Assembly: GCA_002403075.1 (NCBI GenBank)
Contig: DHHB01000082.1
Location: forward strand, 32,213 to 96,212
Source of the DNA: a bacterium UBP1_UBA4783
GTDB lineage: Bacteria; Krumholzibacteriota; Krumholzibacteriia; Krumholzibacteriales; Krumholzibacteriaceae
Direction: 5' to 3'
Length of the DNA: 64,000 nt
Shown: piece by piece, positions 7,614-49,600 of the stretch
How positions within the stretch are numbered: the first letter of the stretch is position 1
How the letters are laid out: each line of letters opens with the position of its first letter
The notes under the pieces: model-generated
Seen by the model: only the letters and a program-made list of their open reading frames with translations
Told to the model about the DNA's origin: nothing
The model's database searches: none
Position numbers and translations under genes: made by a program

Positions 7614-7703
7614 TCACGTGGGAACGCCGAGGCGGGGGAGGATGAAGAACATCAGAACAAACCAGATCGCGACAAACACGAGCAGCTTCAGCATGTCGTT
7701 CAT
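7614..7703 (-). CDS. Possible 29-aa single-pass membrane microprotein.
   Basis: MNDMLKLLVFVAIWFVLMFFILPRLGVPT is a hydrophobic helix lying between the ArsR and zinc-ribbon genes on the same strand. Confidence 0.25.
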   Translation of the reverse strand: MNDMLKLLVFVAIWFVLMFFILPRLGVPT

Positions 7704-8077: not shown

Positions 8078-8261
8078 ATTCTCATATACTCATACAATAA
8101 TATTTCTCCCGCGTCAAGGCGAAACCGCCGTCCGCGGCCGGCGGGAGGGGAGCCACGCCCGCCGAAACCCTTCTTCCGTCCGGCGCCCGACGGGGTTATA
8201 ATCGGCGGCGCGGCCCGGCGAGGGCCGCAGAGACGCTTGACACGGGAGGGTATTCGAGATC

Positions 8262-13264: not shown

Positions 13265-13498
13265 GAAGGAACCTCAATATCGAATGGCGGTTACCGTCGG
13301 CGGCGTCCAAAGCGCGCCTGCGGAGCCGCTTTTCTCGGGCTCATGCCTCGGAATCGGCGGCTCGACGACACAGATATGAGGCGGAAGGCACAAAGTCAAG
13401 AGCTTTGTGGCAGTTGCGCCCTTCGGGGCCGCGGCCGACGCCGCGGATGGCGCGGGGCGGCCGCTCGGAACCGGCCGGCCGGCGGATACTCCGCGCTC

Positions 13499-16433: not shown

Positions 16434-16522
16434 CGTCTCTCTCTCCGCGTCCGGCCGCGCGACGCGAACGAACGCGACGCGACTATAGCAAAAAAAATAT
16501 CTTCTTCGCGAATCAAAAATGC

Positions 16523-16552
16523 TTGACACATTTTTTCATGAATGAATACCAT
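16523..16552 (+). promoter_or_regulatory. Putative sigma70 promoter (TTGACA-N18-TACCAT) in an AT-rich island upstream of the Lys-rich microprotein gene.
   Basis: TTGACA at 16523-16528, and the only AT-rich stretch in this intergenic region. The -10 is imperfect. Confidence 0.35.
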
Positions 16553-16667
16553 GCCCTCGAAGTGAATTCGCGTCCGCCTCCGAACGCATCGAGCGCCGGA
16601 CGACAGAGGAGAGGCGGACACCAAGTGGCGATGGTAGGCTTTCAACCTTCACAAAGGAGTGGATACC

Positions 16668-16763
16668 ATGCCGGTAAAGAAGAAAGCAAAAGCGAAACCG
16701 AAGAAGAAAGCCAAAGCCAAAGCGAAACCGAAAAAGAAGGCAAAGAAGAAAGCCAAGAAGTAA
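16668..16763 (+). CDS. 31-aa lysine/alanine-rich microprotein MPVKKKAKAKPKKKAKAKAKPKKKAKKKAKK, 58% Lys and very basic.
   Basis: ATG sits 7 nt after RBS AAAGGAG, with a TAA stop. The AAG/AAA-rich coding sequence is anomalous in a 70%-GC genome. It is followed 40 nt later by a strong intrinsic terminator. The overlapping 206-aa ORF 16523..17143 has no RBS and spans the terminator. Confidence 0.55.
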   Translation: MPVKKKAKAKPKKKAKAKAKPKKKAKKKAKK

Positions 16764-16805
16764 TAGCACGTCTTCGCCATTTCCGACAGTTACCATCGTC
16801 ATTAT

Positions 16806-29506: not shown

Positions 29507-29617
29507 GTGCGTTCCGCCTTCGAAAGCCTCGAGGGCCGGGTGTGGGATGGGCGGGCGGGCTTATCCTTCTGAGCGCTTGCATTCGCTCCCCGGCGGGTAG
29601 TACTATCACATCGAACG

Positions 29618-29875
29618 ATGGGAGGCCACGGAGAAATGAACGGCAGCGCGAACGACGAGTTCGTCGAGCTCGAGAAGGTTCAGGGGGATTTCGAGGCGCA
29701 GGTTCTGAGAAGCCTCCTCGAATCCGAGGGGATCGACGTGATCGTGAAGGCCGGCCTCGTCCATACGGTTCATCCGCTGACCGTCGACGGCCTCGGCGAG
29801 GTTCGCGTGTGCGTGCGCGACGGGGACGTCCCCCGCGCGCGGGAGATTCTCGACGCGTTTCGGGAGCGCCGGTAG
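29618..29875 (+). CDS. Small DUF2007-like protein.
   Basis: 85-aa ORF with the pattern E..A..L.S.L...GI.....D.... Family assignment is tentative. Confidence 0.4.
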   Translation: MGGHGEMNGSANDEFVELEKVQGDFEAQVLRSLLESEGIDVIVKAGLVHTVHPLTVDGLGEVRVCVRDGDVPRAREILDAFRERR

Positions 29876-29877
29876 CG

Positions 29878-31005
29878 ATGGCGCGGGATGCCCTCCCGGC
29901 GTCGAGCGGCGAGGATCCCGAGTTCCTGTCACGCCAGCTCATCACGTATATCGGCAACAAGCGAGCCCTGCTGGGTCAGATCGCCGCGGCGTCCGAGCGC
30001 GTCAAGCGCCGACTCGGGAAGAGCAAGCTGCGCGTATTCGACGCGTTCAGCGGCTCCGGGATCGTCTCGCGGTTCTTCAAAGCGTACTCATCGTATATCG
30101 CGAGCAACGACATAGAGGATTACGCCGCGACGGTCTCCCGTTGCTTTCTCCGCAACAGGAGCGCGGTCGACATGCCGGCGCTGCGCCGGCTCGTTGACGA
30201 TCTGAACGAGCGGGTTTCGACGGTCCCCTTTCAGCCGGGATTCATCGAGGAGCTCTACGCCCCGCGCGACGACGACGCGATCACGAAGGACGACAGGGTC
30301 TTCTACACCCGCGCGAACGCGCGGCGTCTCGACAACTACCGTCGGCTCATCGAATCCGCACCGGACGGCGAGAGGGACCTGCTCCTCGGCCCGCTCCTTA
30401 GCGAGGCGTCGGTACACGCCAACACGGCGGGCGTATTCAAGGGCTTTTACAAGAACAGACATACGGGGATCGGCCGGTTCGGCGGAAGCGGCGCCGACGC
30501 GCTCGGCCGCATAACGGGCGAGATACGGCTCGAGCCGCCCGTTCTCAGCAGGTTCGAGTGCGATCACGAGGTGTTCCAAACCGACGCGGCGGCCGCCGCG
30601 CGAGGACTCCAAGATCTCGACCTCGCGTACCTCGATCCGCCGTACAACCAACATCCGTACGGGTCCAACTATTTCATGCTCAATCTGCTCGTGTGGTACG
30701 AGCGTCCGGAGCGCGTGAGCCGCGTTTCCGGAATTCCCGCGCACTGGCGGCGCTCCGGATACAACGTCCGGGCGAGGTCGCTCCCGCTTCTGCGGGAGCT
30801 CGTCGCCGCGATCGACGCTCCGTTTCTTCTCGTCTCGTTCAACGACGAGGGGTTCATCGCCCCGTCCGCGATGCGCTCGATGCTGGAGGAGGCGGGGAGG
30901 GTGGAGACCTTCGAGACGAGGTACAACGCCTTTCGCGGGAGCAGGAGCTTCGCGAACCGGCCGCTCCACGTGACCGAACGGCTGTTCCTCGTCGAGCGGA
31001 GATAG
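29878..31005 (+). CDS. D12-class (Dam-like) N6-adenine DNA methyltransferase with no cognate nuclease in view.
   Basis: Motif I FDAFSGSG, motif IV DPPY (LAYLDPPYNQ) and N-terminal YIGNKRALL. The start is at MARDALP. Confidence 0.7.
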   Translation: MARDALPASSGEDPEFLSRQLITYIGNKRALLGQIAAASERVKRRLGKSKLRVFDAFSGSGIVSRFFKAYSSYIASNDIEDYAATVSRCFLRNRSAVDMPALRRLVDDLNERVSTVPFQPGFIEELYAPRDDDAITKDDRVFYTRANARRLDNYRRLIESAPDGERDLLLGPLLSEASVHANTAGVFKGFYKNRHTGIGRFGGSGADALGRITGEIRLEPPVLSRFECDHEVFQTDAAAAARGLQDLDLAYLDPPYNQHPYGSNYFMLNLLVWYERPERVSRVSGIPAHWRRSGYNVRARSLPLLRELVAAIDAPFLLVSFNDEGFIAPSAMRSMLEEAGRVETFETRYNAFRGSRSFANRPLHVTERLFLVERR

Positions 31006-31139
31006 CGGTCGTTCGGCCGGCAGGCGAAGCGGCGCCGAGCCTCGCGGCGGGCGCGAGAAACGAGGGGCGGCGCGCCCCCGCGCGGACGTTCTTCGGGCCT
31101 TGCCAATTCGCGGGGACTTCGCTATTATCCCCCCTGCGT

Positions 31140-31214
31140 GGGGGCTTAACTCAGCGGTAGAGTGCTATCCTCACACGATAGAAGTCGCAGGTTCAAATCC
31201 TGCAGTCCCCACCA
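31140..31214 (+). tRNA. tRNA-Val (anticodon CAC).
   Basis: Manual fold: acceptor GGGGGCU/AGUCCCC with one G:U pair, D-arm ACUC-AGCGGUA-GAGU, anticodon stem CUAUC/GAUAG with loop CUCACAC, T-arm GCAGG-UUCAAAU-CCUGC, CCA. Confidence 0.75.
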
Positions 31215-31331
31215 TGAGTTTTCCGCGCGGCGCTTTGTGCCGGCGGACGTCTCCGCCGTCCCACCCGGCGGCTCCCGAACAGGCCCGTTATGCGACATCG
31301 TACCCCCCCACCCGGTGCGAAGGAGTGTGCC

Positions 31332-34300
31332 ATGATGCACGGCTCGATGTTCGCCCGTCGCCGCCGCGGCGCCGCCGCGGCCGCACTCGCGGCGCTCGCG
31401 GTTCTGTGTGCTCTCGTCCCGGCGTCCGGCGCCCGCGCGGCGGACGCGCGCCCCCTCATGCGTTTTCCCGACATCTCCGGCAACATGATCGCGTTCGTGT
31501 ACGGGGAGGATATATGGTCGGTGAGCGCGGACGGCGGCGTGGCGACGCGGCTCACGATCCACGACGGGCAGGAGCGCTACCCGCGGTGGAGCCCGGACGG
31601 CTCGATGATCGCCTTCACCGGCGAGTACGACGGGAACGCCGACGTGTACGTGATGAACGCGCGCGGCGGCGCCATCACGAGGCTCACGTACCATCCGGAC
31701 AACGACCGGGTCGTCGGATGGCATCCGACGAAGAACAAGATCATGTTCATCTCGGGCCGGAAACACTTCAGATTCACGAAGCTCTATCTCGTCTCTCCGG
31801 ACGGCACGGGGCTCGAGGAGACGATCCTGCACAACGTCGCCCACGCGAGCTTCTCTCCCGACGGATCGAAGATCGCCTACAACGAGGACGAGCGCGAGTT
31901 CCGCACGTGGAAGCGCTACCGGGGCGGCCTCGCTCAGGAGGTCCTCCTGTACGATTTCTCGACGGACGAAAAGCGCAACCTCACGAACTTCGACGGCACC
32001 GACCGCTTGCCGATGTGGATCGGAGACGCCGTCTATTTTTCCTCCGACCGCGACGGCGTTCTCAACATCTATTCGGTCGACCCGCGGTCGGGCGCGATCG
32101 AGCAGCTCACGCGCCATACCGAGTACGACGTCCGCCGCCCGAGCGAAGGGGACGGACGCATCGTCTACGAGCTCGGCGGAACGCTGTGGGTGCTCGACGT
32201 CGCGACGAAACGGACGCGGCAGGTGCCCGTCGAGATCGGGGCGGACGCCCCGGAGATTCGGCCGACGCTCGTCGACGTCGCCGGGTTCATACAGGACGTC
32301 GACATATCGCCGAGCGGCAAGCGCGCCGTCGTGGTCGCGCGGGGAGAGGTCTTCACCGTTCCGAAGGAGCACGGTCCCATACGCAACCTGACGCGCGACA
32401 GCGGCTCCCGGGACAAGGACGCCGTCTGGTCGCCGGACGGAACATCGATCGCCTATCTTTCGGACCGCAGCGGCGAGTACGAGATATACGTCGCCGACGC
32501 CGGGGGCGCGGGCACGCCGATGCGGCTCACGACGAGCAGGGACGGGTACCGCCATACGCTCCGCTGGTCGCCCGACGGCTCGAAGATCGCCTTCACCGAC
32601 CAGACGCTCACCCTGTATTTCGTGGACGTCGCGACGAAGAAGATCACGAAGGTCGACAAGGCCGAGTACGAGCACATGGACGTCTCCCTCGACGCCAAGG
32701 ACATCTACGATTTCGCCTGGTCCCCCGACGGCAGGCATCTCGCGTACTCGAAGATGAGCGCGGACCTCGTCTCGCAGGTCTACGTCTATTCCCTCGGCAC
32801 GAAGGAGCCGCGCTGCGTCTCGAACGGTCTCTTCAACGATTTTCATCCCGCGTTCTCGCGCGACGGGAAACGCCTCTTCTTCGTTTCGAACAGGCGCTTC
32901 GATCCCGTCTTCTGCGATTTCGAGTGGGAGATGGTCTACAAGAAATCCTCGGGGATCTACTGTCTGGCCCTTCAAGCCGACGCCGGGCCTCTCTTCCCGC
33001 CGCGGAGCGACGAGGAAACCGCCGGGAAGCCGGCCGCCCAAGAGGAGGGAAAGGCGAAGTCGAAAGCGCGCGCCGATAAGGACGACGGCCTCGTCCGCAT
33101 CGACTTCGACGGCATCGCCGAGCGCATCGAACGCCTCCCGCTCCCCCCGGGCAACTACCGCTTCCTCGCCGCCGGCGAGAAGGCGCTCTTTTATCTCAAC
33201 CGCGCCGACGGCGATTTCAACCGCTTCGAGTTCCGCCTTCCGGGATCGATGAGCCTCTACGCGTTCGACTTCGAGGAGCGCGAGGAGAAAAAGGTCATCG
33301 ACGAGATCAACTCGTACGCCCTCTCGGCCGACGGATCGAGCATCGCGTACCGGCAGGGACCGGTCGTCGGCATCGTCTCCTCCGACGCGCGCGAGACGCC
33401 GGGCAGCCCGCTCGATCTCGGCGACCTCTCGATGTGGCTCGACCCGCGCGCCGAGTGGACGCAGATCTTCAACGAGGCCTGGCGCATGGAGCGAGATTTC
33501 TACTACGAGCCCGGAATGCACGGCCTCGACTGGAACGCGATGAGGGAGAAGTACGGACGCCTCATGCCGTACGCTTCCTGCCGCCAGGACGTCGAGTTTC
33601 TCGTCGGCGAGCTCATCGGCGAGCTCAACACGTCGCACACGTACGTCTACGGAGGAGACCGACGCCGCGCGGCGGAGCCGGTCGGGGTCGGCATGCTCGG
33701 CGCCGATTACGAGGTCGACGCGGCCTCGAACCGGTACCGCGTCGCGAGGATACTGCGCGTTTCCGACTGGACGCGCGAGGTCCTGCCGCCGCTCGTGCGT
33801 CCGGGGCTCCGGGTCGCGGAAGGGAACTATGTCCTTCGCGTGAACGGACGGGAGATCACGGCGGACAAAGAAATCTACGCGTGCTTTCAGGGTCTCGCGG
33901 GGAAACAGACGTCGCTTCTCGTGAACGACAAGCCGTCCGAGACGGGGGCGTGGGAGATCGTCGTCGAGCCGCTCGGGAGCGAGAACACCCTGCGTTACCT
34001 CGATTGGTGCGAGAGCAACAGGGCGATCGTGGAGAAGGAGTCGAACGGAACGATCGGCTACATCCACCTGCCCGACACCTACACGGGCTCGGCGCGCGAG
34101 TTTCCGAAGTACTTCCTGAGCCAAACGCGCAAGCGGGGGATCGTCGTCGACGGACGCTTCAACGGCGGAGGCCTCGATCCGTCGATCTTCCTCCAGCGTC
34201 TCACGCGGCCGATCACGGGATATTGGACCCGCCGCCATTCGCACGACCAGACGAGTCCGTTCTTCGCCGTCACGGCGCACCTCGCCTGCCTCACGAACCG

Positions 34301-34655
34301 GCAGGCAGGCTCCGGCGGCGACGAGCTGCCGTTCGAGTTCCAGCTTCTCGGGCTCGGTCCCGTCATCGGAACGCGCTCGTGGGGCGGTCTCGTCGGCGTA
34401 TCGATGTTCATCGATCTCGTCGACGGCGGCGGGCTCACCGCGCCCGATTACCGGATCTACGATCCGAACGGAAAATGGGTCGTAGAGAACACGGGCGTCA
34501 CGCCGGACGTCGAGGTCGAGCTTCATCCGGCCGAGATGGCCCGCGGCTACGACGCCCAGCTCATGAAGGGGATAGAGGTCCTCGCGAAAAAGATCGCGGA
34601 GGGGCCTCGGCCGTGGCCGAAACACGAAGCTATCCCCCGCGACAATATGAAGTAG
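31332..34655 (+). CDS. Tricorn protease homolog (peptidase S41B).
   Basis: About 1100 aa with a signal peptide, N-terminal beta-propeller WSPDG repeats, a PDZ region and a C-terminal S41 catalytic domain. RBS AGGAG lies 6 nt upstream. Confidence 0.8.
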   Translation: MMHGSMFARRRRGAAAAALAALAVLCALVPASGARAADARPLMRFPDISGNMIAFVYGEDIWSVSADGGVATRLTIHDGQERYPRWSPDGSMIAFTGEYDGNADVYVMNARGGAITRLTYHPDNDRVVGWHPTKNKIMFISGRKHFRFTKLYLVSPDGTGLEETILHNVAHASFSPDGSKIAYNEDEREFRTWKRYRGGLAQEVLLYDFSTDEKRNLTNFDGTDRLPMWIGDAVYFSSDRDGVLNIYSVDPRSGAIEQLTRHTEYDVRRPSEGDGRIVYELGGTLWVLDVATKRTRQVPVEIGADAPEIRPTLVDVAGFIQDVDISPSGKRAVVVARGEVFTVPKEHGPIRNLTRDSGSRDKDAVWSPDGTSIAYLSDRSGEYEIYVADAGGAGTPMRLTTSRDGYRHTLRWSPDGSKIAFTDQTLTLYFVDVATKKITKVDKAEYEHMDVSLDAKDIYDFAWSPDGRHLAYSKMSADLVSQVYVYSLGTKEPRCVSNGLFNDFHPAFSRDGKRLFFVSNRRFDPVFCDFEWEMVYKKSSGIYCLALQADAGPLFPPRSDEETAGKPAAQEEGKAKSKARADKDDGLVRIDFDGIAERIERLPLPPGNYRFLAAGEKALFYLNRADGDFNRFEFRLPGSMSLYAFDFEEREEKKVIDEINSYALSADGSSIAYRQGPVVGIVSSDARETPGSPLDLGDLSMWLDPRAEWTQIFNEAWRMERDFYYEPGMHGLDWNAMREKYGRLMPYASCRQDVEFLVGELIGELNTSHTYVYGGDRRRAAEPVGVGMLGADYEVDAASNRYRVARILRVSDWTREVLPPLVRPGLRVAEGNYVLRVNGREITADKEIYACFQGLAGKQTSLLVNDKPSETGAWEIVVEPLGSENTLRYLDWCESNRAIVEKESNGTIGYIHLPDTYTGSAREFPKYFLSQTRKRGIVVDGRFNGGGLDPSIFLQRLTRPITGYWTRRHSHDQTSPFFAVTAHLACLTNRQAGSGGDELPFEFQLLGLGPVIGTRSWGGLVGVSMFIDLVDGGGLTAPDYRIYDPNGKWVVENTGVTPDVEVELHPAEMARGYDAQLMKGIEVLAKKIAEGPRPWPKHEAIPRDNMK

Positions 34656-34710
34656 AGTCTCCGCGTGCCGGGACGAGGAGCCCCGGGGCTCCCATGCTTC
34701 GATCGCGAGG

Positions 34711-34747
34711 CCGGGCGGGATATCGGAAATCCCGTCCGGCTTTTTTT
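34711..34747 (+). terminator. Intrinsic terminator after the tricorn gene.
   Basis: 11-bp stem CCGGGCGGGAU/AUCCCGUCCGG, loop AUCGGAA, then CUUUUUUUGGGG. Confidence 0.7.
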
Positions 34748-34808
34748 GGGGGGCGCCCGCGAGGACAGGATTCGGGGATGCTTCTGCGTGCGCTCGCCGT
34801 TTCGAGCG

Positions 34809-34849
34809 TGTAAACATTTGTTTACAATTGTTCCGCCTTGCGGTATAAT
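34809..34849 (+). promoter_or_regulatory. Near-consensus sigma70 promoter TTTACA-N17-TATAAT, overlapped by a perfect palindrome TGTAAACA-TT-TGTTTACA (candidate operator).
   Basis: -35 at 34821-34826 and -10 TATAAT at 34844-34849 with an exact 17-nt spacer. The 8-bp inverted repeat spans 34809-34826. It sits in an AT-rich island ~180 nt upstream of the 35030 and 35585 genes. Confidence 0.6.
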
Positions 34850-35029
34850 CGATCGGTAATCCAAGCAATATTCCTAGGGGTTTGACAAGTTCCGCCGTCT
34901 CTGTGGCTTTGCCGTCCAGCGCGCAAGCGGAGGCGATCCCGGGTGCCATTGTTTCGTATCGCATTGAGAAATATGCGTTTTCCCATCGAAATTCCTTCCG
35001 ATGATCCGCTCAAGCAGGGGGTGGCTGTT

Positions 35030-35569
35030 ATGAAACGGGTCGTTCTCTTGTTTCTCGCCTCGATCCTTTTCCTCGCGTTCGCGGCCGATATCGGCCTCGC
35101 GACGAAGATTGTGTACCGGAGCCCGCGCGAGCTCGCCGACGAGTCCTCGCACATCGTGCGGGGAAGGGTCGAGCGCGTGCGGTCGTTCTGGAATCGCGAG
35201 CAAACCAAGATATTCACCGAAGCCGTCATCGCGGTGGACGAGACGTACAAGGGCGCCGCTCTCGGCGAAGCGCGCGTCCTTCAGCTCGGCGGAATCGTCG
35301 GCCACGTGAACATGCGCGTCGAAGGCGCGCTCTCGTGGAGGCTCGATGAGGAGGTGCTGCTCTTCCTCGAGCCCGGCATGCAGGGCACGTTCAACGTCGC
35401 GGGGTTCTCGCAGGGGAAGTACGAGATCGAGCGCGATCCGAGGACGAACCGGGCGTTCGTGCGTTCACCGGGGCTTCCCGATACGGAGCTCGTGGGGAAG
35501 CCGAACGGGGCGGCGCCGCGGCGCATCGGTCTCGGAGATTTCATCGATGAAGTCGTCGGACAAAGGTAG
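35030..35569 (+). CDS. Secreted 179-aa protein of unknown function, co-transcribed with the giant protease.
   Basis: Signal peptide MKRVVLLFLASILFLAFAADIG. It ends 16 nt before the RBS and ATG of the 2388-aa gene. Confidence 0.5.
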   Translation: MKRVVLLFLASILFLAFAADIGLATKIVYRSPRELADESSHIVRGRVERVRSFWNREQTKIFTEAVIAVDETYKGAALGEARVLQLGGIVGHVNMRVEGALSWRLDEEVLLFLEPGMQGTFNVAGFSQGKYEIERDPRTNRAFVRSPGLPDTELVGKPNGAAPRRIGLGDFIDEVVGQR

Positions 35570-35584: not shown

Positions 35585-38500
35585 ATGAAGACGATAGCAT
35601 TCGCAACGATGGTCGTTCTGGGGATCCTCCTTTTCGGATCCCTCGGTCTTTCAGGCGCCGGCCGGGACCCGCTCCGCATGCCGAACGATTCGGACGGAGA
35701 CGGCGTGCCCGATCCGCTCGACCTCTGTCCGCAGGAGAACGCCTCGTTCTTCGACCGCGACGGAGACGGGTGCATCGACGACCCGGTCAGCGCGCGCCAT
35801 ACGGAATACTGGGCGCCGGATCAGATGCCGTTTACGTACTATATCCACGAGGGTGGCGCGCCCGGCGTCGGGGACGGCAGCGATTTCGCCGCGATCCAGA
35901 ACGGGATGAGCGCGTGGGCCGCCATCCCGGGCGTCGATTTCTCGGTGAGCTACGGCGGAACGACGTCGCAGGCCGTGGCGGCGGCGCTCGACCAGGTGAA
36001 CCTCGTCACCTTCAGCGACAATCAGTACCAGTTCGGGGCGGCGGTGCTCGCCGTGGGCATCTCGACCTCCTTTACGGTCGACTCCGTGTACAACGGGACG
36101 CAGTATCGTCCCGGACAGATCGTCGACGCCGATATGATATTCAATCCGCTCAAGAAATGGCGGACGCCGACCGCAGGGACGCAGGGCACGGACATCCGGA
36201 GTGTGGCGACCCATGAGGCGGCGCATCTTTTCGGCATCGCCCACTCGCCGGTGCGGACCTCGACGATGTTCTACGTGCTCCCGCCGGGAACGGAGGCGGC
36301 GAGCCTCGAGACGGAAGACGAGCTCGTATTTTTCAAGGCGTATCCCGAGGCCGGCGCCCTCGCCGCCGCGAGCCGTCTCGACGGATCCGTTCTCGACGGA
36401 TCCACGAACGCTCCCGTGCCGGGAGCGATCGTGTGCGCGATCGACGCCGCGTCGGGGGATACCGTCGCGGCGGACTACACGATGCCGGACGGCAGCTTCT
36501 GCTTCGTCGGGCTCCCGGACGGACAGTACTACGTCGCGATCCACGCCCTCGACGGGAGCTCGACCATCGGATACCTCAAGCCTGCCTACATCAATAGCCT
36601 CGTCGACACGACGGCCGTGACGGCTTTCGTCGCCGAATACTGGGATCTCGCCGAGTCGAATACGGACGACGCCGCGGCGAAGGACGTCGTTACGATCGGC
36701 CCCGCCGCGCCGCCGGGAGCCCTTGCGATCGTCACCAACATCGACAGCACGCCCCCGGAAGTCGTCTCGATCACTCCGGCGGCGAGCATGGACTCGGTCA
36801 GCATCGACGCCGCCGTCGTCATCACGTTCTCGGAGCCGATCGATTACACGACCATCAGCGGCAACTTCAGGATCCTCGATGCCGCGGCCGGAACGTTCAT
36901 CTCGGGTTCCGCGACCGTTCTCCGGGACGATTCGGTCATCGCGTTCACTCCCTACGGTCTCTTCCAGTTCGAAACGGCGTACGAGCTGTCGCTCGAAACG
37001 GGGCTCACCGACAAGAACGGCGTCGCGCTCGCGACGGAGTTCCAATCGAATTTCGTCACGGAGCCCCTGCCGCCGCTCGCCGTCATGAACCTATCGCCGA
37101 GCAAGGGGGTCGGCGGGTCGATCGTCATCGTGAACGGAGCGGGATTCTCGTGGACGGCGTCGGCGAACACGGTGCGCTTCGGATCGATGGAGGCGCCCGT
37201 GCTCGACGCCTTCCCAAACCGGCTCATCGTGATGGTTCCGGCCGGCGCCTCGACCGGTCTCGTGACGGTAGAGACGGGGGGCGAAACGAGCAACGGGCTC
37301 ACCTTCACCGTGCTCTCTGCTTTCGAAATCGCCCGAGGCTACGAGACCGGCGTGACCGAGCTCGGCGCCCTTCCGCGGGCGATCACGGTCCTGCCGGACG
37401 GCGGCTGGGCGTACGTCGCGACGGATATCGGTGCCGCGGCCGTCATCGTCGATCCCGGCCGCTCCGGATATCTCACCGTGACGTCGATACCGATGACGGG
37501 GGGTTTCGTCGCAGTCGAGGCGACGCCCGACGGCAAGCGCGTGTACGCCGCGAACGCGGTCATGGGAAGGCTCTGCACGATCGACACCGATCCGTCGCAC
37601 GGACTCCTCTTCAACACGATCATCGCGGAACATTCGGTCGGGTGCAGCCCGATCGGAATCGCCGTCGATCCGAACGGCGGCAGGGCGTACGTCGCGACGG
37701 ACGTCGGCGGCGTGCAGGTATGGGACATTCGATCCGGGAGCCTCACGTACGAGCGGCACATCGGCGAGCTCGCGCCGGGAGAATCCGGTCTTCGGGGCGC
37801 CCTCGCCGTCGATCCCGCGGGAAGCCGCCTGCTCGCGCCGACGGACCGCGGCACGCTGCTCGTGTTCGATCTCGGCGGGGATTCGCTCCTCGCGGAGATC
37901 CCCGTTCTCGGCGATCCGCAGGACGTCGTCGTCGATCCGGCCGGACAGCGCGCCTACGTGAGCGACGGGACGGGCAACGTCACCGTCGTATCCATCACGG
38001 GTCTTTTCAGGGTGCAGGATATCAATACGGGCGGATCGCTTCGCGGGATGACGCTCACGCCGGGAGGCGGCTACCTCTACGCGACGAACCGGCAGCTCGA
38101 TCTCATCGACGTGATCGATCTCAAGGAAGAGAGCCCGACCTTCCGGAGCGTCGCCGCGACGATCGCGATCGGCTCGAATCCGGTCGACGTCGCCCGATCG
38201 CCCGACGGGTTCTACGCGTTCTCCGTCGTGCAGGGCACTCGGCAGCTCATCGTCACGACGATCGGGCTCGGTCCGACGCTCGCGAGCCTTTCGAGGCGCG
38301 CGGGACCGCCGGGCGCGAAACTCGTGCTCGCGGGAACCGGTTTCGGCGTGAATATCGAAGAGCTCTTCGTCGAGTTCCCGAACGCGCTCGATCCGGCGCA
38401 TCCGATTCGAGTCATCCCGGAGTACAGCTCCGGCACGGCGATAGCGGCGGCGGTTCCCCGGGGAGCGGGGAGCGGGCCCGTGAAGGTCGTGCGAGTCCCG

Positions 38501-41500
38501 TGGAACGCCGTCCCGGGGAGCGAAGCGCACGCAACCGCGCAAGAGGAGGGCGAGCAGTTCTCCAACGCTCTCTATTTCCAGGTTCTCGACGGTTCATCCG
38601 GGACGGGAACGATGCGCCACGCCACGGGCATCGGAATGCCGCCGCTCTTCGAGCTCACGAACGAGCTCGCCTTTTCCCCGACGGGGGATTTCGTTCTCGT
38701 CGGCGGTTACGACGGGAAAGCCGCGATCCTCGACACCGATCCCGAAAGCGCCACCTTCAATCAGTTCCTGAGAACGATGGACGTATCGTCGGAGCTGCTC
38801 GAAGACATGACGCTGACGCCGGACGGAGAACGCGCCTATTTCGCCGTCCGCGGCCTCGATAGCATCCCGTGTTTCAACATGAACCGTCATTCGCCGGGAT
38901 TCGGCGACTTCATGGGCGCAATATGGGTGCCGACGATTTATATCAACAACCGCATCGCCGTGAGCCCGAGCGGCGAGCTGCTTCTCGTCACGGCGGGCGA
39001 TTCGCTCTGCGCAGTCGACATCGTGCCGGGGTCCACGAGGGAGAACGAGATCATCGGCGTCGCGATGAACCATGCGATGCCGGACGCGCTCGGATTCCAT
39101 CCCGGCGGTAGGCACGCCTATTTCGCGACCGCCGCGAACGTTCTCGGTGTCCTCGATATCGATCCGCTGAGCCCGCGGTACCTCGAAGTCATCGGCTCGG
39201 TGACGATGCCGGATACGCTGACGATTCGGCGGTTCGTGGGGTCGTTTTCATTCACCCCCGACGGCGCCCGATGCCTCGTCGTCACCGTCGCGCCGGAGCT
39301 GGCGCAGGAGGCCTGGTGTCTCTTCGTGCTCGATACGTCGGATCCCGGCGCGCCGGTGATCGAGCAGCGGATCGATTTTCCGTGCCAAAACAACATTCGG
39401 GCCATGGGAGCGGTCGACGTATCTCCCCAGGGAGACCGCGCCATCGCGGGGCTGGGTTTCTGCGCGTACTATACGGTGGATCTCCTTTCGGAGCCGATGT
39501 CCATCATCGATACGCACTTTGACTGGAGCAACATCTCCACGATGAACATGGATTTCACGCCGGACGGCTCTCGCCTCTACGCCACCGCGCCCTACGCGAC
39601 CGAAGACAGCATTTTCGTGTACGACTTCAGCAACGCCGCCGACATCGTGGCGGTTTCCGGCGACATGCAGAGCGGCGTCATCGGACAACCGCTTCCGGCG
39701 CCGCTCAGGGTGTTCGTGAGCGAGCCCGGTCTCGTGCCCGTTCCGGTGCCCGGAGTGCTCGTGAACTACCGAGTCATAGACGGCGGAGGCCATTTCACGC
39801 AGAGCGGCCTCGTGACGCAGACCGTCGCGACGGACCAAGCGGGATTCGCCGAGCTCGATTGGACTCTCGGGGACGAGATCGGCGAGCAAACGCAGATCGT
39901 CGAGGTGAGGGCGATCGGGCTCATGGGCTCCCCGCTCTATTTCGTGGCTCATTCGTATCCCGATCCCGAATCCCTGCCGCTCACGCTCTCGCAAACGGCG
40001 CCGCTCGACGGGAGCGGCACGGTGAGCGTCACGAGCGCCGTTCAGGCGGTCTTCAGCAAGGCGGTGCAGCAGGCGTCGATCTCGTCGTCGACCTTTTCCC
40101 TCCGTCGGACGGGAGCGGCGGAGGGCGTTCCCGCGAACACGGGCTTCGCCGACGGCGACCGACGGGTGGCACTCATTCCGCTCGCCGCGCTCGAATACGG
40201 CACGACCTACGTTCTCGAGGCCACGGGCGGCGTCCTCGGCGTGCTCGGCGATTCCCTCCAGAATCCCGATTCGAGCCGTTTCACGACCGCCCCGAAACCG
40301 CCGCTCGTCCTCGCCTCGGTGACGCCGCCGGCGGCGTCCGTCGGCGCGTGCCTCATCCTCTCGGGGCAGGGCTTCGATCCGTCGCCGGCGAACAACACCG
40401 TGCTCTTCAACGGGGCCGCCGTCCCGCCGACGTCGGCCGGGGTCGATTATCTGAGCCTCAAGGTGCCTCTCGCCGCGATTACGGGGCCGATCCGCGTCGT
40501 GTCGGGGGGCGATACGACGAACGCCGCGCCCTTTGTCGTGCTCGTGCCGAGCATGTCGCCCGTCGACGAGGTCGTCGCGACCGTCGGCACCGGCAACTCG
40601 ACGAACAGCGTCGCCGTGACGCCTGACGGCGCGATCGCGTACTCCGTGAGCCCGGACGGCGACATCGTCATCCCGATCGACATCGGCGGCCTCGCGACCT
40701 ATCCGAGCATCTCGGTCGGGGACAATCCCGTCGCGATCGCGATCCATCCCGAAGGCACGTACGCGTACGTCGTCAATTTCGGCTCGGGCAGCGTTTCCAT
40801 CATCGTCGTCGATCCCGATTCGGCGGCCTTCAACACCGTTGTTCAGACGATCCTCGTCGGCACGAATCCGCTCGACGTCGCGGTGAACCCGGACGGCGAC
40901 CGCGTCTACGTCGCGAACGCCGGCTCTTCGAGCCTGAGCGTGATCGACGGCGACAATTCGAGCGCGACGCATCACCAGGTGCTCGCGACGATCTCCACCG
41001 GCTCCTCGGCTAAGAGCGTGGCGGTGACGCCGGACGGCGCCGTCGTGTACGTCGGCACGGGCGCCGGCTACTCGATCGTCGACGCCGAAACGAACGCCGT
41101 CGTCGGCGCCGTCTCGACCGGCTCCTCGACGAAGAGCGTCGCGGTGACGCCTGACGGCGCGCTCCTCATCATCCTCACGGCGGGAGGCGATATCCTCGTC
41201 GTCGACGTGCAGGAGGGAAGTCCGACGGAAAACCAGGTCCTCGCGACGATCTCCGCGGGCACGACGACGAAGAGCGTGGCGGTTAGTCCGGACGGTGCGC
41301 TCCTCTACATCATCCTCGAAGACAGCGACGAGGTGATCGTCTACGCGCTCACGATCGTCGCGGGCGCCTCCGTCTTCGAGCCGGGCGTCATTATCCCGCC
41401 GACTCGCGTTGAGGTGTCGCCGATCGATACGATACCGGCCGGAAGCGATCCGGCGTATATCGCCTTTGATCCGTCCGGCTCGGGGCTTGCGATCATTTGT

Positions 41501-42751
41501 AGCGCGGGAGACAGGACGGTCATCATTCTCAACGCCTCGAGCGTGCCGATCGGGCCGCTCTCGGCGGCGGTCACGGTCACGCCGCATACCCTCAATCTCC
41601 GGTCGAACGGCCGGTGGGTGAGCGGGCGCATCGAGCTGCCCGCGGCCTTCTTCCCCGAGGAGATCGCGCTCGCGAGCGTTCTGCTCCAGAACGCGATCCC
41701 CGCTGATCCGGAACGCTGGACGATTGAGGATTGCGACGCGGACGGCATCCGCGAGCTCGTCTGCAAGTTCGACCGCGCCTTGTTCCAGGCGATGCTGCCG
41801 CAGGGTGAATACGTGCCGGTGACGATCACGGGGAACGTGAGAAACCGCACCTTCGAGGGACTCGATACGATCCGCACGATCCGCCCGACGGTGAAGCATC
41901 CGACGGGCTGCGTAGTCACCATGGGCGAGATCACGACGATCCTCTGGACCTCGCCCGCGGGAATCCGCGTCGACGCGGTCAACGTGCACTGGTCCCCCGA
42001 TGACGGCGAAACGTGGTTCCCCGTCGCCGAGGCCGTGCCGGACGAGGGCGGCGTTCCCTGGCGCGCGCCGGAAACAGAGCACGCGAACTGCCGGGTGCTC
42101 GTCACGCTCCTCCGTGACGGCGAGATCCTCGGGATGGGCATCAGCCCCGATCCCTTCACGGTAAGCGTGCCGGTCGCCGTGACCGTCGCGGGTTTTTCGG
42201 CCGTTATGCGCGGAGAGGAAGCCGCGATCCGATGGAGCACGCAGACGGAATCCGGCGTCGACGGATTCAACGTGCTGCGCGCCGATCGCGAGGACGGTCT
42301 CTTCGAGAGGATCGGCGGGGAAACGGTTCCGGCCCGCGGCGGCGCGGACGGCGGAGAGTACGAGGTTCGGGACACTGAGGTCTCGCTCAACCGGACCTAC
42401 TACTACGAGCTCGAGCGCGTGTCCCGCGACGGAAGCCGGGTCATCGCGGGTCCATTCCGTCTCGACGTGCGCGCGCCGTTCGATCTCGCGCAGAACGTGC
42501 CGAACCCGTTCAATCCGACGACGCTCATCAAGTTCACGATCGCGGAGGATTGCCGCGTGACCCTCGTCGTCTACGACGCGAGCGGACGCAGGGTTCGCTC
42601 TCTCGTCGCGCGGGATCTCCCCGCCGCGTTTTATCGCATCGAGTGGGACGGCCGCAACGACGAAGGGCGTCGCCTGTCGAGCGGCGTGTATTTCTACCGT
42701 CTGAACGCGGGACGGTTCACGAAGACGCGAAAGCTCGTGCTTCTCAGGTGA
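35585..42751 (+). CDS. Giant (2388 aa) secreted multidomain metzincin-type metalloprotease with Ig-like and beta-propeller repeat domains and a T9SS-type C-terminal sorting domain.
   Basis: Signal peptide and thrombospondin-3-like Ca-binding repeats DSDGDGVPD/DRDGDGCID. Metzincin motif HEAAHLFGIAH with Met-turn STMFY. SbsA/Big-like and IPT-like segments, then many YVTN-type beta-propeller repeats (VAVTPDGA..YV.N..S.SVID). The C-terminus NVPNPFNPTTLIKF...VYDASGRRV...WDGRNDEGRRLSSGVYFYRL matches the Por-secretion tail. RBS AAAGGAGGG is upstream. Confidence 0.8.
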   Translation: MKTIAFATMVVLGILLFGSLGLSGAGRDPLRMPNDSDGDGVPDPLDLCPQENASFFDRDGDGCIDDPVSARHTEYWAPDQMPFTYYIHEGGAPGVGDGSDFAAIQNGMSAWAAIPGVDFSVSYGGTTSQAVAAALDQVNLVTFSDNQYQFGAAVLAVGISTSFTVDSVYNGTQYRPGQIVDADMIFNPLKKWRTPTAGTQGTDIRSVATHEAAHLFGIAHSPVRTSTMFYVLPPGTEAASLETEDELVFFKAYPEAGALAAASRLDGSVLDGSTNAPVPGAIVCAIDAASGDTVAADYTMPDGSFCFVGLPDGQYYVAIHALDGSSTIGYLKPAYINSLVDTTAVTAFVAEYWDLAESNTDDAAAKDVVTIGPAAPPGALAIVTNIDSTPPEVVSITPAASMDSVSIDAAVVITFSEPIDYTTISGNFRILDAAAGTFISGSATVLRDDSVIAFTPYGLFQFETAYELSLETGLTDKNGVALATEFQSNFVTEPLPPLAVMNLSPSKGVGGSIVIVNGAGFSWTASANTVRFGSMEAPVLDAFPNRLIVMVPAGASTGLVTVETGGETSNGLTFTVLSAFEIARGYETGVTELGALPRAITVLPDGGWAYVATDIGAAAVIVDPGRSGYLTVTSIPMTGGFVAVEATPDGKRVYAANAVMGRLCTIDTDPSHGLLFNTIIAEHSVGCSPIGIAVDPNGGRAYVATDVGGVQVWDIRSGSLTYERHIGELAPGESGLRGALAVDPAGSRLLAPTDRGTLLVFDLGGDSLLAEIPVLGDPQDVVVDPAGQRAYVSDGTGNVTVVSITGLFRVQDINTGGSLRGMTLTPGGGYLYATNRQLDLIDVIDLKEESPTFRSVAATIAIGSNPVDVARSPDGFYAFSVVQGTRQLIVTTIGLGPTLASLSRRAGPPGAKLVLAGTGFGVNIEELFVEFPNALDPAHPIRVIPEYSSGTAIAAAVPRGAGSGPVKVVRVPWNAVPGSEAHATAQEEGEQFSNALYFQVLDGSSGTGTMRHATGIGMPPLFELTNELAFSPTGDFVLVGGYDGKAAILDTDPESATFNQFLRTMDVSSELLEDMTLTPDGERAYFAVRGLDSIPCFNMNRHSPGFGDFMGAIWVPTIYINNRIAVSPSGELLLVTAGDSLCAVDIVPGSTRENEIIGVAMNHAMPDALGFHPGGRHAYFATAANVLGVLDIDPLSPRYLEVIGSVTMPDTLTIRRFVGSFSFTPDGARCLVVTVAPELAQEAWCLFVLDTSDPGAPVIEQRIDFPCQNNIRAMGAVDVSPQGDRAIAGLGFCAYYTVDLLSEPMSIIDTHFDWSNISTMNMDFTPDGSRLYATAPYATEDSIFVYDFSNAADIVAVSGDMQSGVIGQPLPAPLRVFVSEPGLVPVPVPGVLVNYRVIDGGGHFTQSGLVTQTVATDQAGFAELDWTLGDEIGEQTQIVEVRAIGLMGSPLYFVAHSYPDPESLPLTLSQTAPLDGSGTVSVTSAVQAVFSKAVQQASISSSTFSLRRTGAAEGVPANTGFADGDRRVALIPLAALEYGTTYVLEATGGVLGVLGDSLQNPDSSRFTTAPKPPLVLASVTPPAASVGACLILSGQGFDPSPANNTVLFNGAAVPPTSAGVDYLSLKVPLAAITGPIRVVSGGDTTNAAPFVVLVPSMSPVDEVVATVGTGNSTNSVAVTPDGAIAYSVSPDGDIVIPIDIGGLATYPSISVGDNPVAIAIHPEGTYAYVVNFGSGSVSIIVVDPDSAAFNTVVQTILVGTNPLDVAVNPDGDRVYVANAGSSSLSVIDGDNSSATHHQVLATISTGSSAKSVAVTPDGAVVYVGTGAGYSIVDAETNAVVGAVSTGSSTKSVAVTPDGALLIILTAGGDILVVDVQEGSPTENQVLATISAGTTTKSVAVSPDGALLYIILEDSDEVIVYALTIVAGASVFEPGVIIPPTRVEVSPIDTIPAGSDPAYIAFDPSGSGLAIICSAGDRTVIILNASSVPIGPLSAAVTVTPHTLNLRSNGRWVSGRIELPAAFFPEEIALASVLLQNAIPADPERWTIEDCDADGIRELVCKFDRALFQAMLPQGEYVPVTITGNVRNRTFEGLDTIRTIRPTVKHPTGCVVTMGEITTILWTSPAGIRVDAVNVHWSPDDGETWFPVAEAVPDEGGVPWRAPETEHANCRVLVTLLRDGEILGMGISPDPFTVSVPVAVTVAGFSAVMRGEEAAIRWSTQTESGVDGFNVLRADREDGLFERIGGETVPARGGADGGEYEVRDTEVSLNRTYYYELERVSRDGSRVIAGPFRLDVRAPFDLAQNVPNPFNPTTLIKFTIAEDCRVTLVVYDASGRRVRSLVARDLPAAFYRIEWDGRNDEGRRLSSGVYFYRLNAGRFTKTRKLVLLR

Positions 42752-45618: not shown

Positions 45619-46668
45619 TCAGCGTTCCCTCCGCGCGCCGCCGCGGACGGCCGGGCCGTCGAGCCGGCGCACTTCCTCGGAGTACCGTTTCTGCATCGAG
45701 AGCAGCTTCGGATCGCCGTCGGTCTCGAGGGCGTCGGGGCAGCGGTTCGAAGCGGAGATCTCGAGCGAATCGGCGCCGAAGGTCACCGTCACCTCGGTGA
45801 AAAACTGCTCCTTGGCGCCCGTTTCGACGACGGCCGTGCGGCCCGCGCGTTCGAAACGCGTCGTCCGCCCCGTGCGGTGTCCGTTCAGGACGACGTCGAT
45901 CCCCGGCACCTCGCGGGCGAGCGCCACGCTCTCCTCCCAGCCGAGGTGGGAAATGGCGACGACGACGTGGCAGCCGTCCGCGCGGAGCCTCGCCGCCGAT
46001 TCGAGGGCGGCGAGTTTCGGGTCGATCGCGGCGTAGCGATTCGAGCCGTCCGCGAGGCCGCGGTGCCATGGGGGAGGAAACACGACGGCGAAAACGCCGA
46101 CGCGGAGCCGTCCGCGCGCGCCGGAAGGGGTCCGGACGCCGGGGAATTCCTTCACGATCTCGCCGGGAAGCGCGCGCTCGCGCGTGCGCCGGTCGAGGAG
46201 GTTCGCGGCGAGGAGCGGCGGCGCATGAGGTCCCGCGCGGGAGCGGAGCTCGTCGAGGCCGATGCGGAGCTCGCTTTCGCCGACGCCCACCGCGTCGTAC
46301 CCGAGCAGCCGCATCGAACGGAACAGGTAGCGGTCGTTCATCTCGCGGTGACGCACGTCGGCGCCGAAATAGAAATCGCCCGTATCGAGGAGGAGGGTCG
46401 GCCGTTCACGGCGCCGCGCGCCGACGAGGGAAGCCCACCGGGCCATCCCGCATTGGTCCCGCTTCCTTCAACCGCAGGGTTCTCGGTAGCCGGACAGATT
46501 GCTCGTGAAGAAGATGCCGAGCTCGGTGCCCGGAGCGCACGGCTCCGGGGCGCGATCCTGGCGGGCCATCCGCACGCGGAGCGGCACGTAGAGGGCGAGC
46601 AGCAGGAGAAGGACGACGGCGGCGGCGTTCCGGAACGCTGCGGCGCTACGGATTCTTGGTTTTTCCAT
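45619..46668 (-). pseudogene. Secreted 5'-nucleotidase/metallophosphoesterase-like protein with degenerate metal ligands. One in-frame TGA (complement of 46468-46470) splits it into ORFs 46468..46668 and 45619..46446 in the same frame. It is either a pseudogene or a Sec-containing protein.
   Basis: The N-terminal fragment has a signal peptide and ...IFFTSNLSGYREPCG, then TGA, then ...RKRDQCGMARW...TLLLDTGDFYFG...LLGYDAVGVGESEL. This parallels UshA, where the corresponding motifs are HTNDHHG and GNHEFD. The two fragments are in the same frame, separated only by TGA. Confidence 0.5.
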
Positions 46669-49600
46669 ATTTCTTGAGCTTCGAATAGACGGTCGGTTTC
46701 GAGATGCCGAGGAGCGCGGCGGCCTTCGTCTTGTCGCCGATCTTCTCGACCACCTTGCTCACGATCATCCCTTCCACGCGCGGAAGGATCGGATCGGCGG
46801 CCGACAGCTCGGTGCGTTCGACGAGCTCCTCGATCGTTTGCTCGAGGGTCGCGCGCTGTTCGGCGCGGGCGATCTCGCGCCGTTTCGCGATGGCGTCCGG
46901 CAGATCCTCGGGCAGGATCGTCTCGCGCCGCGCCGCGATGATCGTCCGGTTGACGATGTTCTCGAGTTCCCGCACGTTCCCCGGCCAGTCGTAGGCGACG
47001 AGGCGGGCCATCGCCTCGGGAGAGATCTTCTTCACGGGCATGCCGTAGAGACGGCAGTAGACGGCGAGGAAATGGAGGGCGAGCGGCTCGATGTCCTCGG
47101 CCCGCTCGCGGAGATCGGGAATGCGGATGGGAAACACGTTGATGCGGTAGTAGAGATCCTCGCGGAATCTTCCCTCGCGGACGAGGGCGAGGAGATCCTT
47201 GTTGGTGGCGGTGATGATCCGCACGTTCGTCGAGATCAAGTGCGAGCCGCCGACGCGGTAGAAGGTCCGGTTCTCGAGCACGTGGAGGAGCTTCGGCTGG
47301 AGCGCGAGCGGCATATCGCCGATCTCGTTCAGGAAGATCGTTCCGCCGTTCGCCGACTCGAAATGGCCGATCCGCAGCTTGTGGGCGCCGGTGAACGCGC
47401 CCCGCTCGTGGCCGAAGAGCTCGCTCTCGAGGAGCTCGGCTGATATCGCCGCGCAGTTGAGCGCCACGAACGGCTTTTCCGCGCGGGGGCTGCGGCAATG
47501 GATCGTTCTCGCGACGAGGTCCTTGCCGGTGCCGTTCGATCCCGTGAGCAGCACCGTGGTGTCCATGTCCCTGATGCCGTCGAGAAGCCCGTACAGGTGC
47601 CTCATCGGGGCGGAGGAGCCGATCACGTCCGGGAACGCCGCGCGCTTGCCGGGCCGCGCGGGCGGGGCGTTCGCCTCGATGCGCGATCGCTCGAACCCCT
47701 CGATCCGATCGGCGAGGAGCGCGCGTTCGAGGGCGAGCGCCGCTTCCTGGCAGAAAGCGACGAGCAGACTATGGTCGCCGTCGGCCGTTCGTTCTCCCCC
47801 CCGCGCGGAGTCGAGGTACAGGAACGCCGTCGCGTCGCCGCCGACGCGCAGCGGCACGCACAGGATGCGCGGGCGTTCCGCGAGAAACTCGGGCGGCACC
47901 TTGCCTTCGGGGAGCGTCGAACGCGTCGTGTCGAGGGGGTATCCGAGCCGCACGGCGACGGCGAGCACGGCCGCGACGCGCCGGTCGGCGAGCGTCCCCG
48001 AAGCGGGGAAGTCGCCGCTCGCGGCGGCGATCCGGAAGGCGTCCTTGCCGTCGGCCTTGCGGATGAGCGCCGCGCGCTCCATGCCGGTGATGCGGAGCGC
48101 CGTATCGACGACGAGGTTTTCGATTTCGGCCGTCCCCCTCGCCGAGCGCACCATCGCCGCGAGGCGGCAGAGCGCGTGGAAGCGGTCGGTATCCGATACG
48201 ATTTCGCCGCGGCACAGCGGCGAGCGCTTTTCGACGCTCTCCCGGAGGCGGCGCACCGGAAGCGGCACGTGCTCGCTTTCGCCGACTGCGGAGAGCGAGC
48301 GGAGGAGGTACTCGCGGGCGAGCGGCTCGTTCCCCTCGGCGAGCGAGAGCGATCCGATCTCGGCGGCGACGCTCGCCGCCGCGTTCGTTCGGCCGAGGAG
48401 CGAGAGCTCGAGGCTCCCGCTCTCGAGCTTGAACCGTCCTTCCTCGACCCGTCCCTGCGAAATGAGTATCCGCCCTTCGAGGATCGTGAGGAGCACCGCC
48501 TCGAGGCGCGAACCGATCCGCTGGTTCAGGGCGCGCGCTTCGGCGAGATGCTTCGCCGCCTCGGGCGCGTCCCCCGAGGCGAGGCGCAGCTCGCCGAGCT
48601 TCCGCAGCACGACGGCGCGCTCGCGGATCGATTTCGTCCGATCGCAGAGGTCGAGGTCGCGCTCGTAGTACGCCGCCGCCTTCTCGCCGTTCCCCTGGAG
48701 AAACTGGATCTCGCCCATCGTGCCCCACACCTCGGCGAGGAGCTGCTGGTTGCCGATCGTCTCGGCGAGGTGCGCGGCCGTGGCGCAGCTGCGCTCCGCG
48801 TCGCGGTACTTCTCCGTCTCGAGATACACGAGGGCTTGATTGAGAAGCGCCGCGGCGAGCCCGGGGAGGTTCTCGTGGCGCTTCTTGATCTCCATGCTCT
48901 TCGCGAAGCATTCGAGCGCCTCGGCGTACGCGCCGAGAGAACGGTACACGAGGCCGAGGTTGTTGTACGTCGCGGCGACGCCGATCTCGTCGCTGCAGTC
49001 CTCGCGGAGAGCGAGACAGCGCTTGTAGCAGAGGATCGCGTCCTCGTACTTGCTGCGGTTCCAGTTGATCGTTCCCATGAGGTTGTACGACTGGGCGATC
49101 TCCGCAGGATCCCTCTTCTCGTCGAGGAGCCGGTGCACGAGAAGACAGTGCTCCCACGAACGGTCGAACGCTCCGAGGCGGTAGTGGATCCAGGCGATGT
49201 CGTTGTAGAGCTTCGCGCGTTCCTGCGAGAGGAGCTCGTCGCCGTGCATCTCGAGCGCTTTCTCGAGGAGCTCCTGCGCCGCGGGAAACTCCCCCCGTTT
49301 TTCGAGGATCTCGCTCTCGCGGCGCACCGCTTCGACGGCGAGGTTGCGGAAACGGGCCGTCTCGGGCTCGCGGTCGATCTCCTCGCGGCAGCGGCGGTAG
49401 AAGGATTCCGCCGCCGAGGTGTTCCCCGTCAGCGCACAATGGGCGCCGAGATCGAGGAGGAGGGCGTAGCGCGCGTCGGCTGGGAGCGCGAGATCGAGAC
49501 CCTCCTCGAAATAGCTCTCGTGAAAGCAGCGCAGCGCCGCGAGCCGCTTGCGCCGCATGAAATGCTGCAGGATCTCGCGGCCGCGCAGCGCCGCTTCGGC

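Follow-up and report, generated by a model that had tools for sequence, protein, structure and literature searches.

What is the function of a palindrome that lies across the -35 box of a strong promoter, ahead of an operon encoding a giant protease? Such an arrangement is found in the window, i.e. the whole stretch of 64,000 nucleotides analysed here, between a tricorn-like protease gene and a two-gene operon. An earlier note had described it as a near-perfect sigma-70 promoter, TTTACA-N17-TATAAT, overlapped by a perfect 8-bp inverted repeat. Both elements are present as described: based on the sequence reading, the repeat consists of TGTAAACA, a central TT and TGTTTACA, and it covers the -35 element of a promoter for which the promoter scan gives 11 of 12 hexamer matches (Table 1).

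Table 1. Positions of the promoter, the putative operator and the flanking genes in the window.
Feature	Position	Strand	Remarks
Tricorn-like S41 protease gene	31290-34655		upstream of the promoter; ends in the intrinsic terminator 34710-34747
Intrinsic terminator of the tricorn-like S41 protease gene	34710-34747	+	GC-rich 12-bp stem, 7-nt loop, T7 run
Full 8-2-8 palindrome TGTAAACA-TT-TGTTTACA, putative operator	34809-34826	.	arms 34809-34816 and 34819-34826, TT 34817-34818; centre near -38.5
Left arm core TGTAAA, conserved form (T/C)GT(A/C)AA	34809-34814	+	approximately -47 to -42; mirrors the -35 hexamer
Promoter TTTACA-N17-TATAAT	34821-34849	+	11/12 hexamer matches
-35 hexamer TTTACA, also the right half-site	34821-34826	+	5/6 consensus
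-10 hexamer TATAAT	34844-34849	+	6/6 consensus; 17 bp from the -35 hexamer
Predicted transcription start	near 34855-34857		from the position of the -10 box
Predicted 5' leader, approximately 174 nt	34856-35029	+	GGGGG Shine-Dalgarno at approximately 35017-35021
Operon gene 1: 179-aa protein, signal peptide	35030-35569	+	no Pfam or NCBIfam family; NTR/TIMP-like OB fold predicted
Operon gene 2: 2388-aa metzincin, HEAAHLFGIAH	35585-42751	+	15 nt 3' of gene 1

The promoter carries near-consensus hexamers separated by a spacer within the range of 16-18 bp. It is intergenic and co-oriented with the operon, is located past the upstream gene's terminator at a distance of 180 nt from the ATG, and is conserved in orthologous loci. 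In the terminator scan the inner part of the upstream gene's intrinsic terminator was detected at 34723-34739, followed by CTTTTTTT, and the complete structure is predicted to shield the promoter from read-through. The view that this is the best consensus match in the window needs qualification: 11/12 is the top score and only at 34821 does it come with both a 17-bp spacer and a perfect -10 box, but the same score is reached by TTGACA-16-CATAAT at 16848. The AT-rich island around the promoter is real, with a GC content of 0.44 at 34800-34899 compared to 0.674 for the whole window; it is one among about a dozen in the window, and the background amounts to 67% rather than the 70% GC that had been given. 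A further AT-rich region, at 16461-16800, contains TTGACA-18-TACCAT at 16523 and a lysine/alanine-rich coding-like stretch (AAGAAGAAAGCAAAAGCGAAACCGAAG..., approximately 16674-16770) that may encode a small basic, histone-like protein. The second 11/12 promoter, at 16848, lies beyond this region.

The eight best promoter matches of the window allow a comparison of the target promoter with its neighbours. Two of the eight sit 11 nt 5' of tRNA genes: TTGCCA-17-TATTAT (31100-31128, plus strand) ends at this distance from tRNA-Val, and TTGACA-18-TACTAT (3397-3368, minus strand) at the same distance from a second tRNA. The organism appears to make use of canonical sigma-70 promoters, and the two sequences suggest canonical hexamers, and not those of the Bacteroidetes type, for this FCB-related lineage. 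None of the seven other good promoters has TTTACA, the -35 box being TTGACA or TTGACT in six of them and TTGCCA in one, and the element formed by the left arm of the palindrome is absent from all seven.

Perfect 8+8 inverted repeats with spacers of 0-6 bp are not rare in the window, where 76 were counted compared to 32.5 in simulations, and AT-rich repeats of this kind number 2 compared to 0.38 in simulations. The 18-mer pattern itself has a single match in the window at up to three mismatches, and none of 100 shuffles gave any. Taken by itself, the palindrome is only mildly unusual and constitutes weak evidence; since 8+8 repeats are common here, it needed independent support from a comparison between genomes.

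Orthologous loci were taken from species-representative genomes, from exact-protein look-ups of close homologues and from JGI metagenomes. The resulting comparison set comprises 22 distinct promoters, whose 179-aa orthologs are 46-100% identical to the protein encoded in the window; the nearest genomes are labelled UBP1 and one more distant relative is labelled Candidatus Eisenbacteria. All 22 promoters keep the -35 box (TTTACA in 18, TTGACA in three loci and TTTAAA in one) and the 17-bp spacer, and most have a TA(T/C)AAT -10 box. The hexamers and their 17-bp spacing are conserved whatever gene is upstream, which supports the promoter as real in the comparative sense. Sequences 3' of the -10 box are unrelated between clades, and a weak TG is seen near -17 to -14.

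With the 22 promoters aligned on the -35 box, a third block becomes apparent. An element of the form (T/C)GT(A/C)AA sits exactly 6 bp 5' of the -35 box in surroundings that are otherwise randomised, and its information content is comparable to that of the -35 and -10 hexamers. High information is confined to G-46, T-45, A-43, A-42 and G-36 and to the two hexamers, and there is almost none 5' of -48. At a spacer of 6 bp, the left hexamer and the -35 hexamer show complementarity at 4.82 of 6 positions on average, compared to 0.6-2.9 at every other spacer. Thus, the conserved core is a 6+6 inverted repeat, TGT(A/C)AA-N6-TTTACA, and not the 8+8 repeat that had been taken as the unit: the inner CA/TG pairs, which extend the arms to 8 bp, are confined to the clade of the window. 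Even among close relatives the arm matches fall to 7/8 in a locus with a 97% identical ortholog (L010) and 6/8 in one at 91% identity (L003).

The form of the repeat differs between lineages. The clade at 46-48% identity has a perfect TGTAAA-N6-TTTACA, with CGTAAA as the left element in L031, and the clade at 60-69% identity has (T/C)GTCAA-N6-TTTACA. In two loci (L059 and L060) both arms are changed and again form a perfect repeat, TGTCAA-N6-TTGACA. In many lineages the left arm deviates from a perfect match, with agreement at 4-5 of 6 positions in the TGTCAA/CGTCAA clade, and G-36 is conserved and its mirror position is not, so that the site is not fully symmetric. Overall, of approximately 60 orthologous loci that could be assessed, approximately 22 carry the element; it is present in every assessable ortholog of at least 60% identity and absent from L020, at 59%.

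Two features of this pattern point to a protein that binds over the -35 box. The left arm has no role in sigma-70 recognition and yet is conserved at a fixed distance, as predicted for such a binding site; an arm that is dispensable for RNA polymerase shows selection both in its sequence (GT.AA) and in its 6-bp spacing. Furthermore, 18 of the 22 promoters have kept a T as the third base of the -35 box, where the consensus and six of the seven other good promoters of the window have G, which suggests that the hexamer is constrained by more than sigma binding.

We estimate a probability of roughly 0.55 that the site is an operator for a dimeric regulator with a half-site resembling TT(T/G)ACA, and that this regulator is likely a repressor. 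The strong sigma-70-type promoter TTTACA-N17-TATAAT would drive a two-gene operon encoding an NTR/TIMP-like secreted protein and a giant T9SS-exported M10 metalloprotease. The operator core TGT(A/C)AA-N6-TTTACA would overlay this promoter from approximately -47 to -30, with the -35 hexamer as its promoter-proximal half-site. A dimeric helix-turn-helix regulator could then bind the -35 hexamer with one subunit and the mirror element (-47 to -42) with its second, and its occupancy would exclude sigma region 4 as well as the C-terminal domain of the RNA polymerase alpha subunit from its proximal position. The most likely effect would be repression of an otherwise constitutively strong promoter. 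Several observations count against this reading: the left arm is often imperfect, the symmetry breaks at G-36, the block at -47 to -36 coincides with the proximal UP-element position, many of the assessed loci are without the element, and neither a regulator gene among the window ORFs scanned nor a second site in 331 kb was found.

The sequence features and their selective conservation are observed, and from them we infer protein binding, a dimer, repression and the transcription start. The geometry had been likened to that of a repressor operator in the earlier note: a dyad-symmetric 8-2-8 repeat does overlap a core promoter element, the -35 box, and its left arm is conserved at fixed spacing, and it is this geometry together with the intrinsic strength of the promoter, and nothing else, that argues for a repressor. 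Since the promoter stays at 11/12 of consensus in essentially all lineages, repression is more plausible than activation. Overall, the earlier interpretation is partly supported: the data speak for a functional, conserved and operon-specific site overlapping the -35 box, and a repressor would be its probable ligand.

A search for further copies had been proposed as a way to define a regulon. A PWM scan of 331 kb (the window and 95 related loci) matched the target promoter alone, in line with the single match at up to three mismatches within the window. Neither the members of a regulon nor an autoregulated regulator gene, either of which would carry a further site, were found in these 331 kb.

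The proximal subsite of a UP element is an A-rich tract, AAAAAARNR at -46 to -38, which contacts the alpha C-terminal domain and is typical of the strongest promoters. The left arm might be read as an intrinsic proximal UP-like element that adds to the strength of an already strong promoter, needs no dedicated regulator and has an incidental symmetry. The conserved block at -47 to -36 does occupy the position of the proximal subsite and is A/T-rich in a genome of 67% GC, the operon has features of a highly expressed gene (near-consensus promoter, long leader), and neither a regulator among the window ORFs scanned nor a regulon in 331 kb was found. However, the most conserved bases are G-46 and T-45 and there is no A-tract, the element is a mirror image of the -35 hexamer in a single register, and the tRNA promoters as well as the other good promoters of the window are without it. 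The retention of the non-consensus TTTACA is also left unexplained, and we consider a UP-like element unlikely.

Should the dimeric protein instead be an activator, it would act in a class-II-like manner and recruit RNA polymerase, either as a CRP/FNR-type protein or as one of the OmpR/PhoB type, the latter reading TGTnnnCAnT as a direct repeat of 10 bp. Like class II sites, the site covers the -35 box 5' of the -10 box, and TGTAA-N8-TTACA resembles TGTGA-N6/8-TCACA, CRP sites with 6- or 8-bp spacers being documented (PMC5263246). The direct-repeat reading of the window sequence, TGTAAACATT against TGTTTACAAT, agrees at 7 of 10 positions, but it fails in the TGTCAAA clade (4/10), where the inverted reading holds (5/6). 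An 11/12 promoter with an optimal spacer in all lineages should need no activator, the centre of the site is near -38.5 and not at -41.5, and the downstream half-site is the very hexamer with which sigma region 4 has to make contact. Activation is therefore a rather improbable reading of the site.

That the palindrome has no function of its own, being a chance repeat, a leftover terminator hairpin, a divergent -35 box or a sigma-54 activator site, is very improbable and largely refuted, since the left arm is conserved across lineages with randomised flanks and no sigma-54 promoter lies within 34650-35100, even though the window holds 76 perfect 8+8 repeats, a 1547-aa sigma-54 activator is encoded nearby with an ortholog directly following the operon in one relative (L095), and another (L045) has TTTACA-17-TAAAAT on the minus strand.

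The structural variants were rejected on their own merits. As a terminator or cruciform the hairpin is weak (-4 kcal/mol, z = -1.55), is without a T-run and lies 3' of the real terminator. As part of a divergent promoter the left arm would pair with a minus-strand -10 box that matches at 1 of 6 positions in the window and at up to 3 of 6 in most orthologs, with L045 as the exception. In that locus (approximately 1165-1224, minus strand) the left arm doubles as the -35 box of the promoter-like site TTTACA-17-TAAAAT, which may represent a back-to-back divergent promoter unique to that lineage.

If the operator reading is right, a regulator should exist, and we looked for it in the vicinity of the operon. 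In the window, in L095 and in L096, no candidate regulator gene was seen next to the operon. Of DNA-binding proteins, the scanned ORFs of the window yielded only an ArsR-family protein 27 kb away and the sigma-54 activator, and no LacI-family gene was among these ORFs. The ArsR-family protein (7700-8077, minus strand) was rejected as a candidate, its own upstream region being without the TGTAAA motif. At the start of its gene, an AT-rich segment at 8060-8105 carries a repeated motif, CATATTCTCATATACTCATACAATAATATT, which is probably the gene's own operator and promoter and is unrelated to the TGTAAA motif. One relative (L059) has an ArsR/SmtB-family gene (633-947, minus strand) that is divergent to the TGTCAA-N6-TTGACA promoter and located approximately 190 nt 5' of it; its product is only 35% identical to the ArsR-family protein of the window, which also counts against the latter as the regulator.

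The 1547-aa protein (46646-51289, minus strand), encoded four genes 3' of the operon, combines TPR repeats, a sigma-54 activator domain and a Fis-type helix-turn-helix. In L095 its ortholog (12365-15189, minus strand) lies directly next to the gene for the giant protease, in convergent orientation. Enhancers of sigma-54 promoters are TGT-N10-ACA-type dyads located 80-150 bp upstream of a GG-N10-GC (-24/-12) promoter. The dyad described here is TGT-N12-ACA with no -24/-12 promoter nearby, and an upstream activator site was rejected as no TGGCACG-N4-TTGCW match at up to three mismatches occurs within 34650-35100.

In the loci compared, the element follows the operon and not the upstream gene. 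The upstream neighbours differ, being the tricorn-like gene in the window, tRNA-Val and DUF2007 in L005, L014 and L017, and other genes in the distant clade, which has the same operon. The tRNA-Val(CAC) lies 65-90 nt 5' of the element in L005, L014 and L017. The gene pair of the operon is also kept in L095, L096 and L057. Comparison of L095, L096, L005, L014 and L017 gives the order AP-endonuclease-like gene, DUF2007, tRNA-Val(CAC), promoter and operon for the relatives. In the window the same tRNA-Val is found at 31140-31214, preceded by a D12-class adenine methyltransferase-like gene (29542-31005), and the gene for the 1121-aa tricorn-like protease (31290-34655) is inserted between this tRNA and the promoter.

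All lineages have a long predicted leader: in the orthologs, 107-340 nt separate the -10 box from the ATG. At gathering thresholds Rfam detects nothing but tRNAs in the window and has no match in the leader, and a permissive Rfam scan of 34650-35100 gave sub-threshold matches only, at the terminator region or just 5' of the promoter. The fold of the window leader is no more stable than that of shuffled sequences (z = +1.6). When the leaders of the window (34856-35029), L004, L014-L017, L031 and L044-L058 were compared, blocks conserved within clades were observed, among them CATTGAGAAATATGC in the clade of the window and GTGTAAGACATACACTCGGAC in the clade at 60-69% identity.

The description of the downstream gene as a T9SS-type metalloprotease is borne out by two matches above their cutoffs: the 2388-aa protein matches Pfam M10 with 36.1 bits (cutoff 24) and carries a C-terminal T9SS type A sorting domain, TIGR04183, with 34.2 bits (cutoff 23). 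Its further domains are Big_5, TIG and a beta-propeller, with Lactonase and FlgD_ig matches in Pfam. The 179-aa family comprises 288 homologues, all named 'hypothetical protein' and without a Pfam domain, in which Thr25 is invariant at the predicted mature N-terminus. In the predicted structure the protein adopts an OB-fold beta-barrel with flanking helices, as expected for an NTR/TIMP module; the Cys1 and conserved disulfides of such modules are lacking, the mature protein being without cysteine.

Gene pairs of an inhibitor and its protease are known for M10 metzincins, for example aprA with aprI/inh in Pseudomonas, Serratia and Erwinia, and animals have the TIMP-MMP pairs. The position of the 179-aa gene directly 5' of the M10 metzincin gene suggests that its product may be a cognate inhibitor or chaperone. 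This comparison concerns operon content, as the 179-aa protein has no sequence similarity to the proteins of the aprA-aprI/inh and TIMP-MMP pairs. Unlike TIMPs, the mature protein is without Cys1 and disulfides, and unlike aprA and MMP products, the protease is a 2388-aa T9SS cargo. A literature search for TIMP-like bacterial proteins returned nothing relevant. The operon content is perhaps a more interesting lead than the promoter, since a TIMP/NTR-fold protein beside a matrixin-type protease would be in bacteria what the TIMP-MMP pairs are in animals.

A wider proposal is that TGT(A/C)AA-N6-TTTACA is the operator of a novel regulator conserved among uncultured lineages related to Eisenbacteria/UBP1, with the -35 hexamer as a half-site, and that it gates a module not known to have been described in bacteria before: a secreted TIMP/NTR-fold protein (a possible inhibitor) co-transcribed with a giant matrixin-like T9SS cargo. 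We offer this tentatively and with some doubt. If true, this candidate phylum would gain its first defined cis-regulatory element; the Eisenbacteria literature that we found consists of community surveys only. If confirmed, it would provide a footprinted promoter and operator for a lineage without cultured members or known regulatory sites, and might be used for fishing for the regulator, for expression tools and for predicting when the giant surface protease is made.

How does the site compare with known operators? Sites for CRP, FNR and NtcA have the form TGTGA-N6-TCACA, or GTA-N8-TAC centred at -41.5, and usually go along with a weak -35 box. The site described here shares with them a TGT...ACA dyad over the -35 region. 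However, it is 2 bp longer (TGTA-N10-TACA, within an 18-bp core), its centre near -38.5 is approximately 3 bp nearer to the start, and it sits on a good -35 box (5/6) rather than replacing one, which sets it apart from class II sites of this family. In LacI/GalR operators half-sites like TGTAAAC and GTTTACA abut across a central CG, with a total length of 14-16 bp, and a 14-mer of this type, TGTAAACGTTTACA, reportedly appears in an article on CcpA of S. aureus. In the window, TGTAAAC and GTTTACA are half-sites typical of the LacI type, but they do not abut: they are parted by 4 bp (ATTT) and lack the central CpG, the spacer is variable and AT-rich in the orthologs, and the inner C and G are not conserved there.

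In sequence, the core agrees with cre-var, which is bound by CcpA with HPr-Ser-P in Gram-positive hosts. TGTAAA-CATTTG-TTTACA in the window has the cre-var architecture. In Clostridium acetobutylicum and other Firmicutes (clostridia and bacilli) this CcpA-bound element is NxTGTAAA-Yx-TTTACAMx, with spacers of 0-40 nt and varied promoter positions in these low-GC genomes, and in EMSA and reporter assays a construct with a 6-nt spacer behaved as the natural 15-nt site did (PMC5263246). The core 6-bp arms TGTAAA/TTTACA are identical in both, and the existence of a class of sites with this core that is bound in experiments speaks for the operator reading. In contrast to cre-var, the site in the window has a constant 6-bp spacer in strict register with the -35 box, and it belongs to an uncultured high-GC lineage related to UBP1/Eisenbacteria.

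A dimeric regulator that competes with sigma for the -35 box is a textbook mechanism. Palindromic operators over sigma-70 -35 hexamers are used by many members of the TetR, MarR, LacI and Xre families. The site resembles these promoter-overlapping repressor operators in being an 18-bp dyad that overlaps the -35 box of a strong promoter and whose non-promoter arm is conserved. It differs from them in that the proximal half-site is the -35 hexamer itself, no regulator gene lies beside the target and a single site occurs in 331 kb. Judged by its sequence, the site is best filed as a further example of the palindromic operators that overlap promoters, which form an ordinary class.
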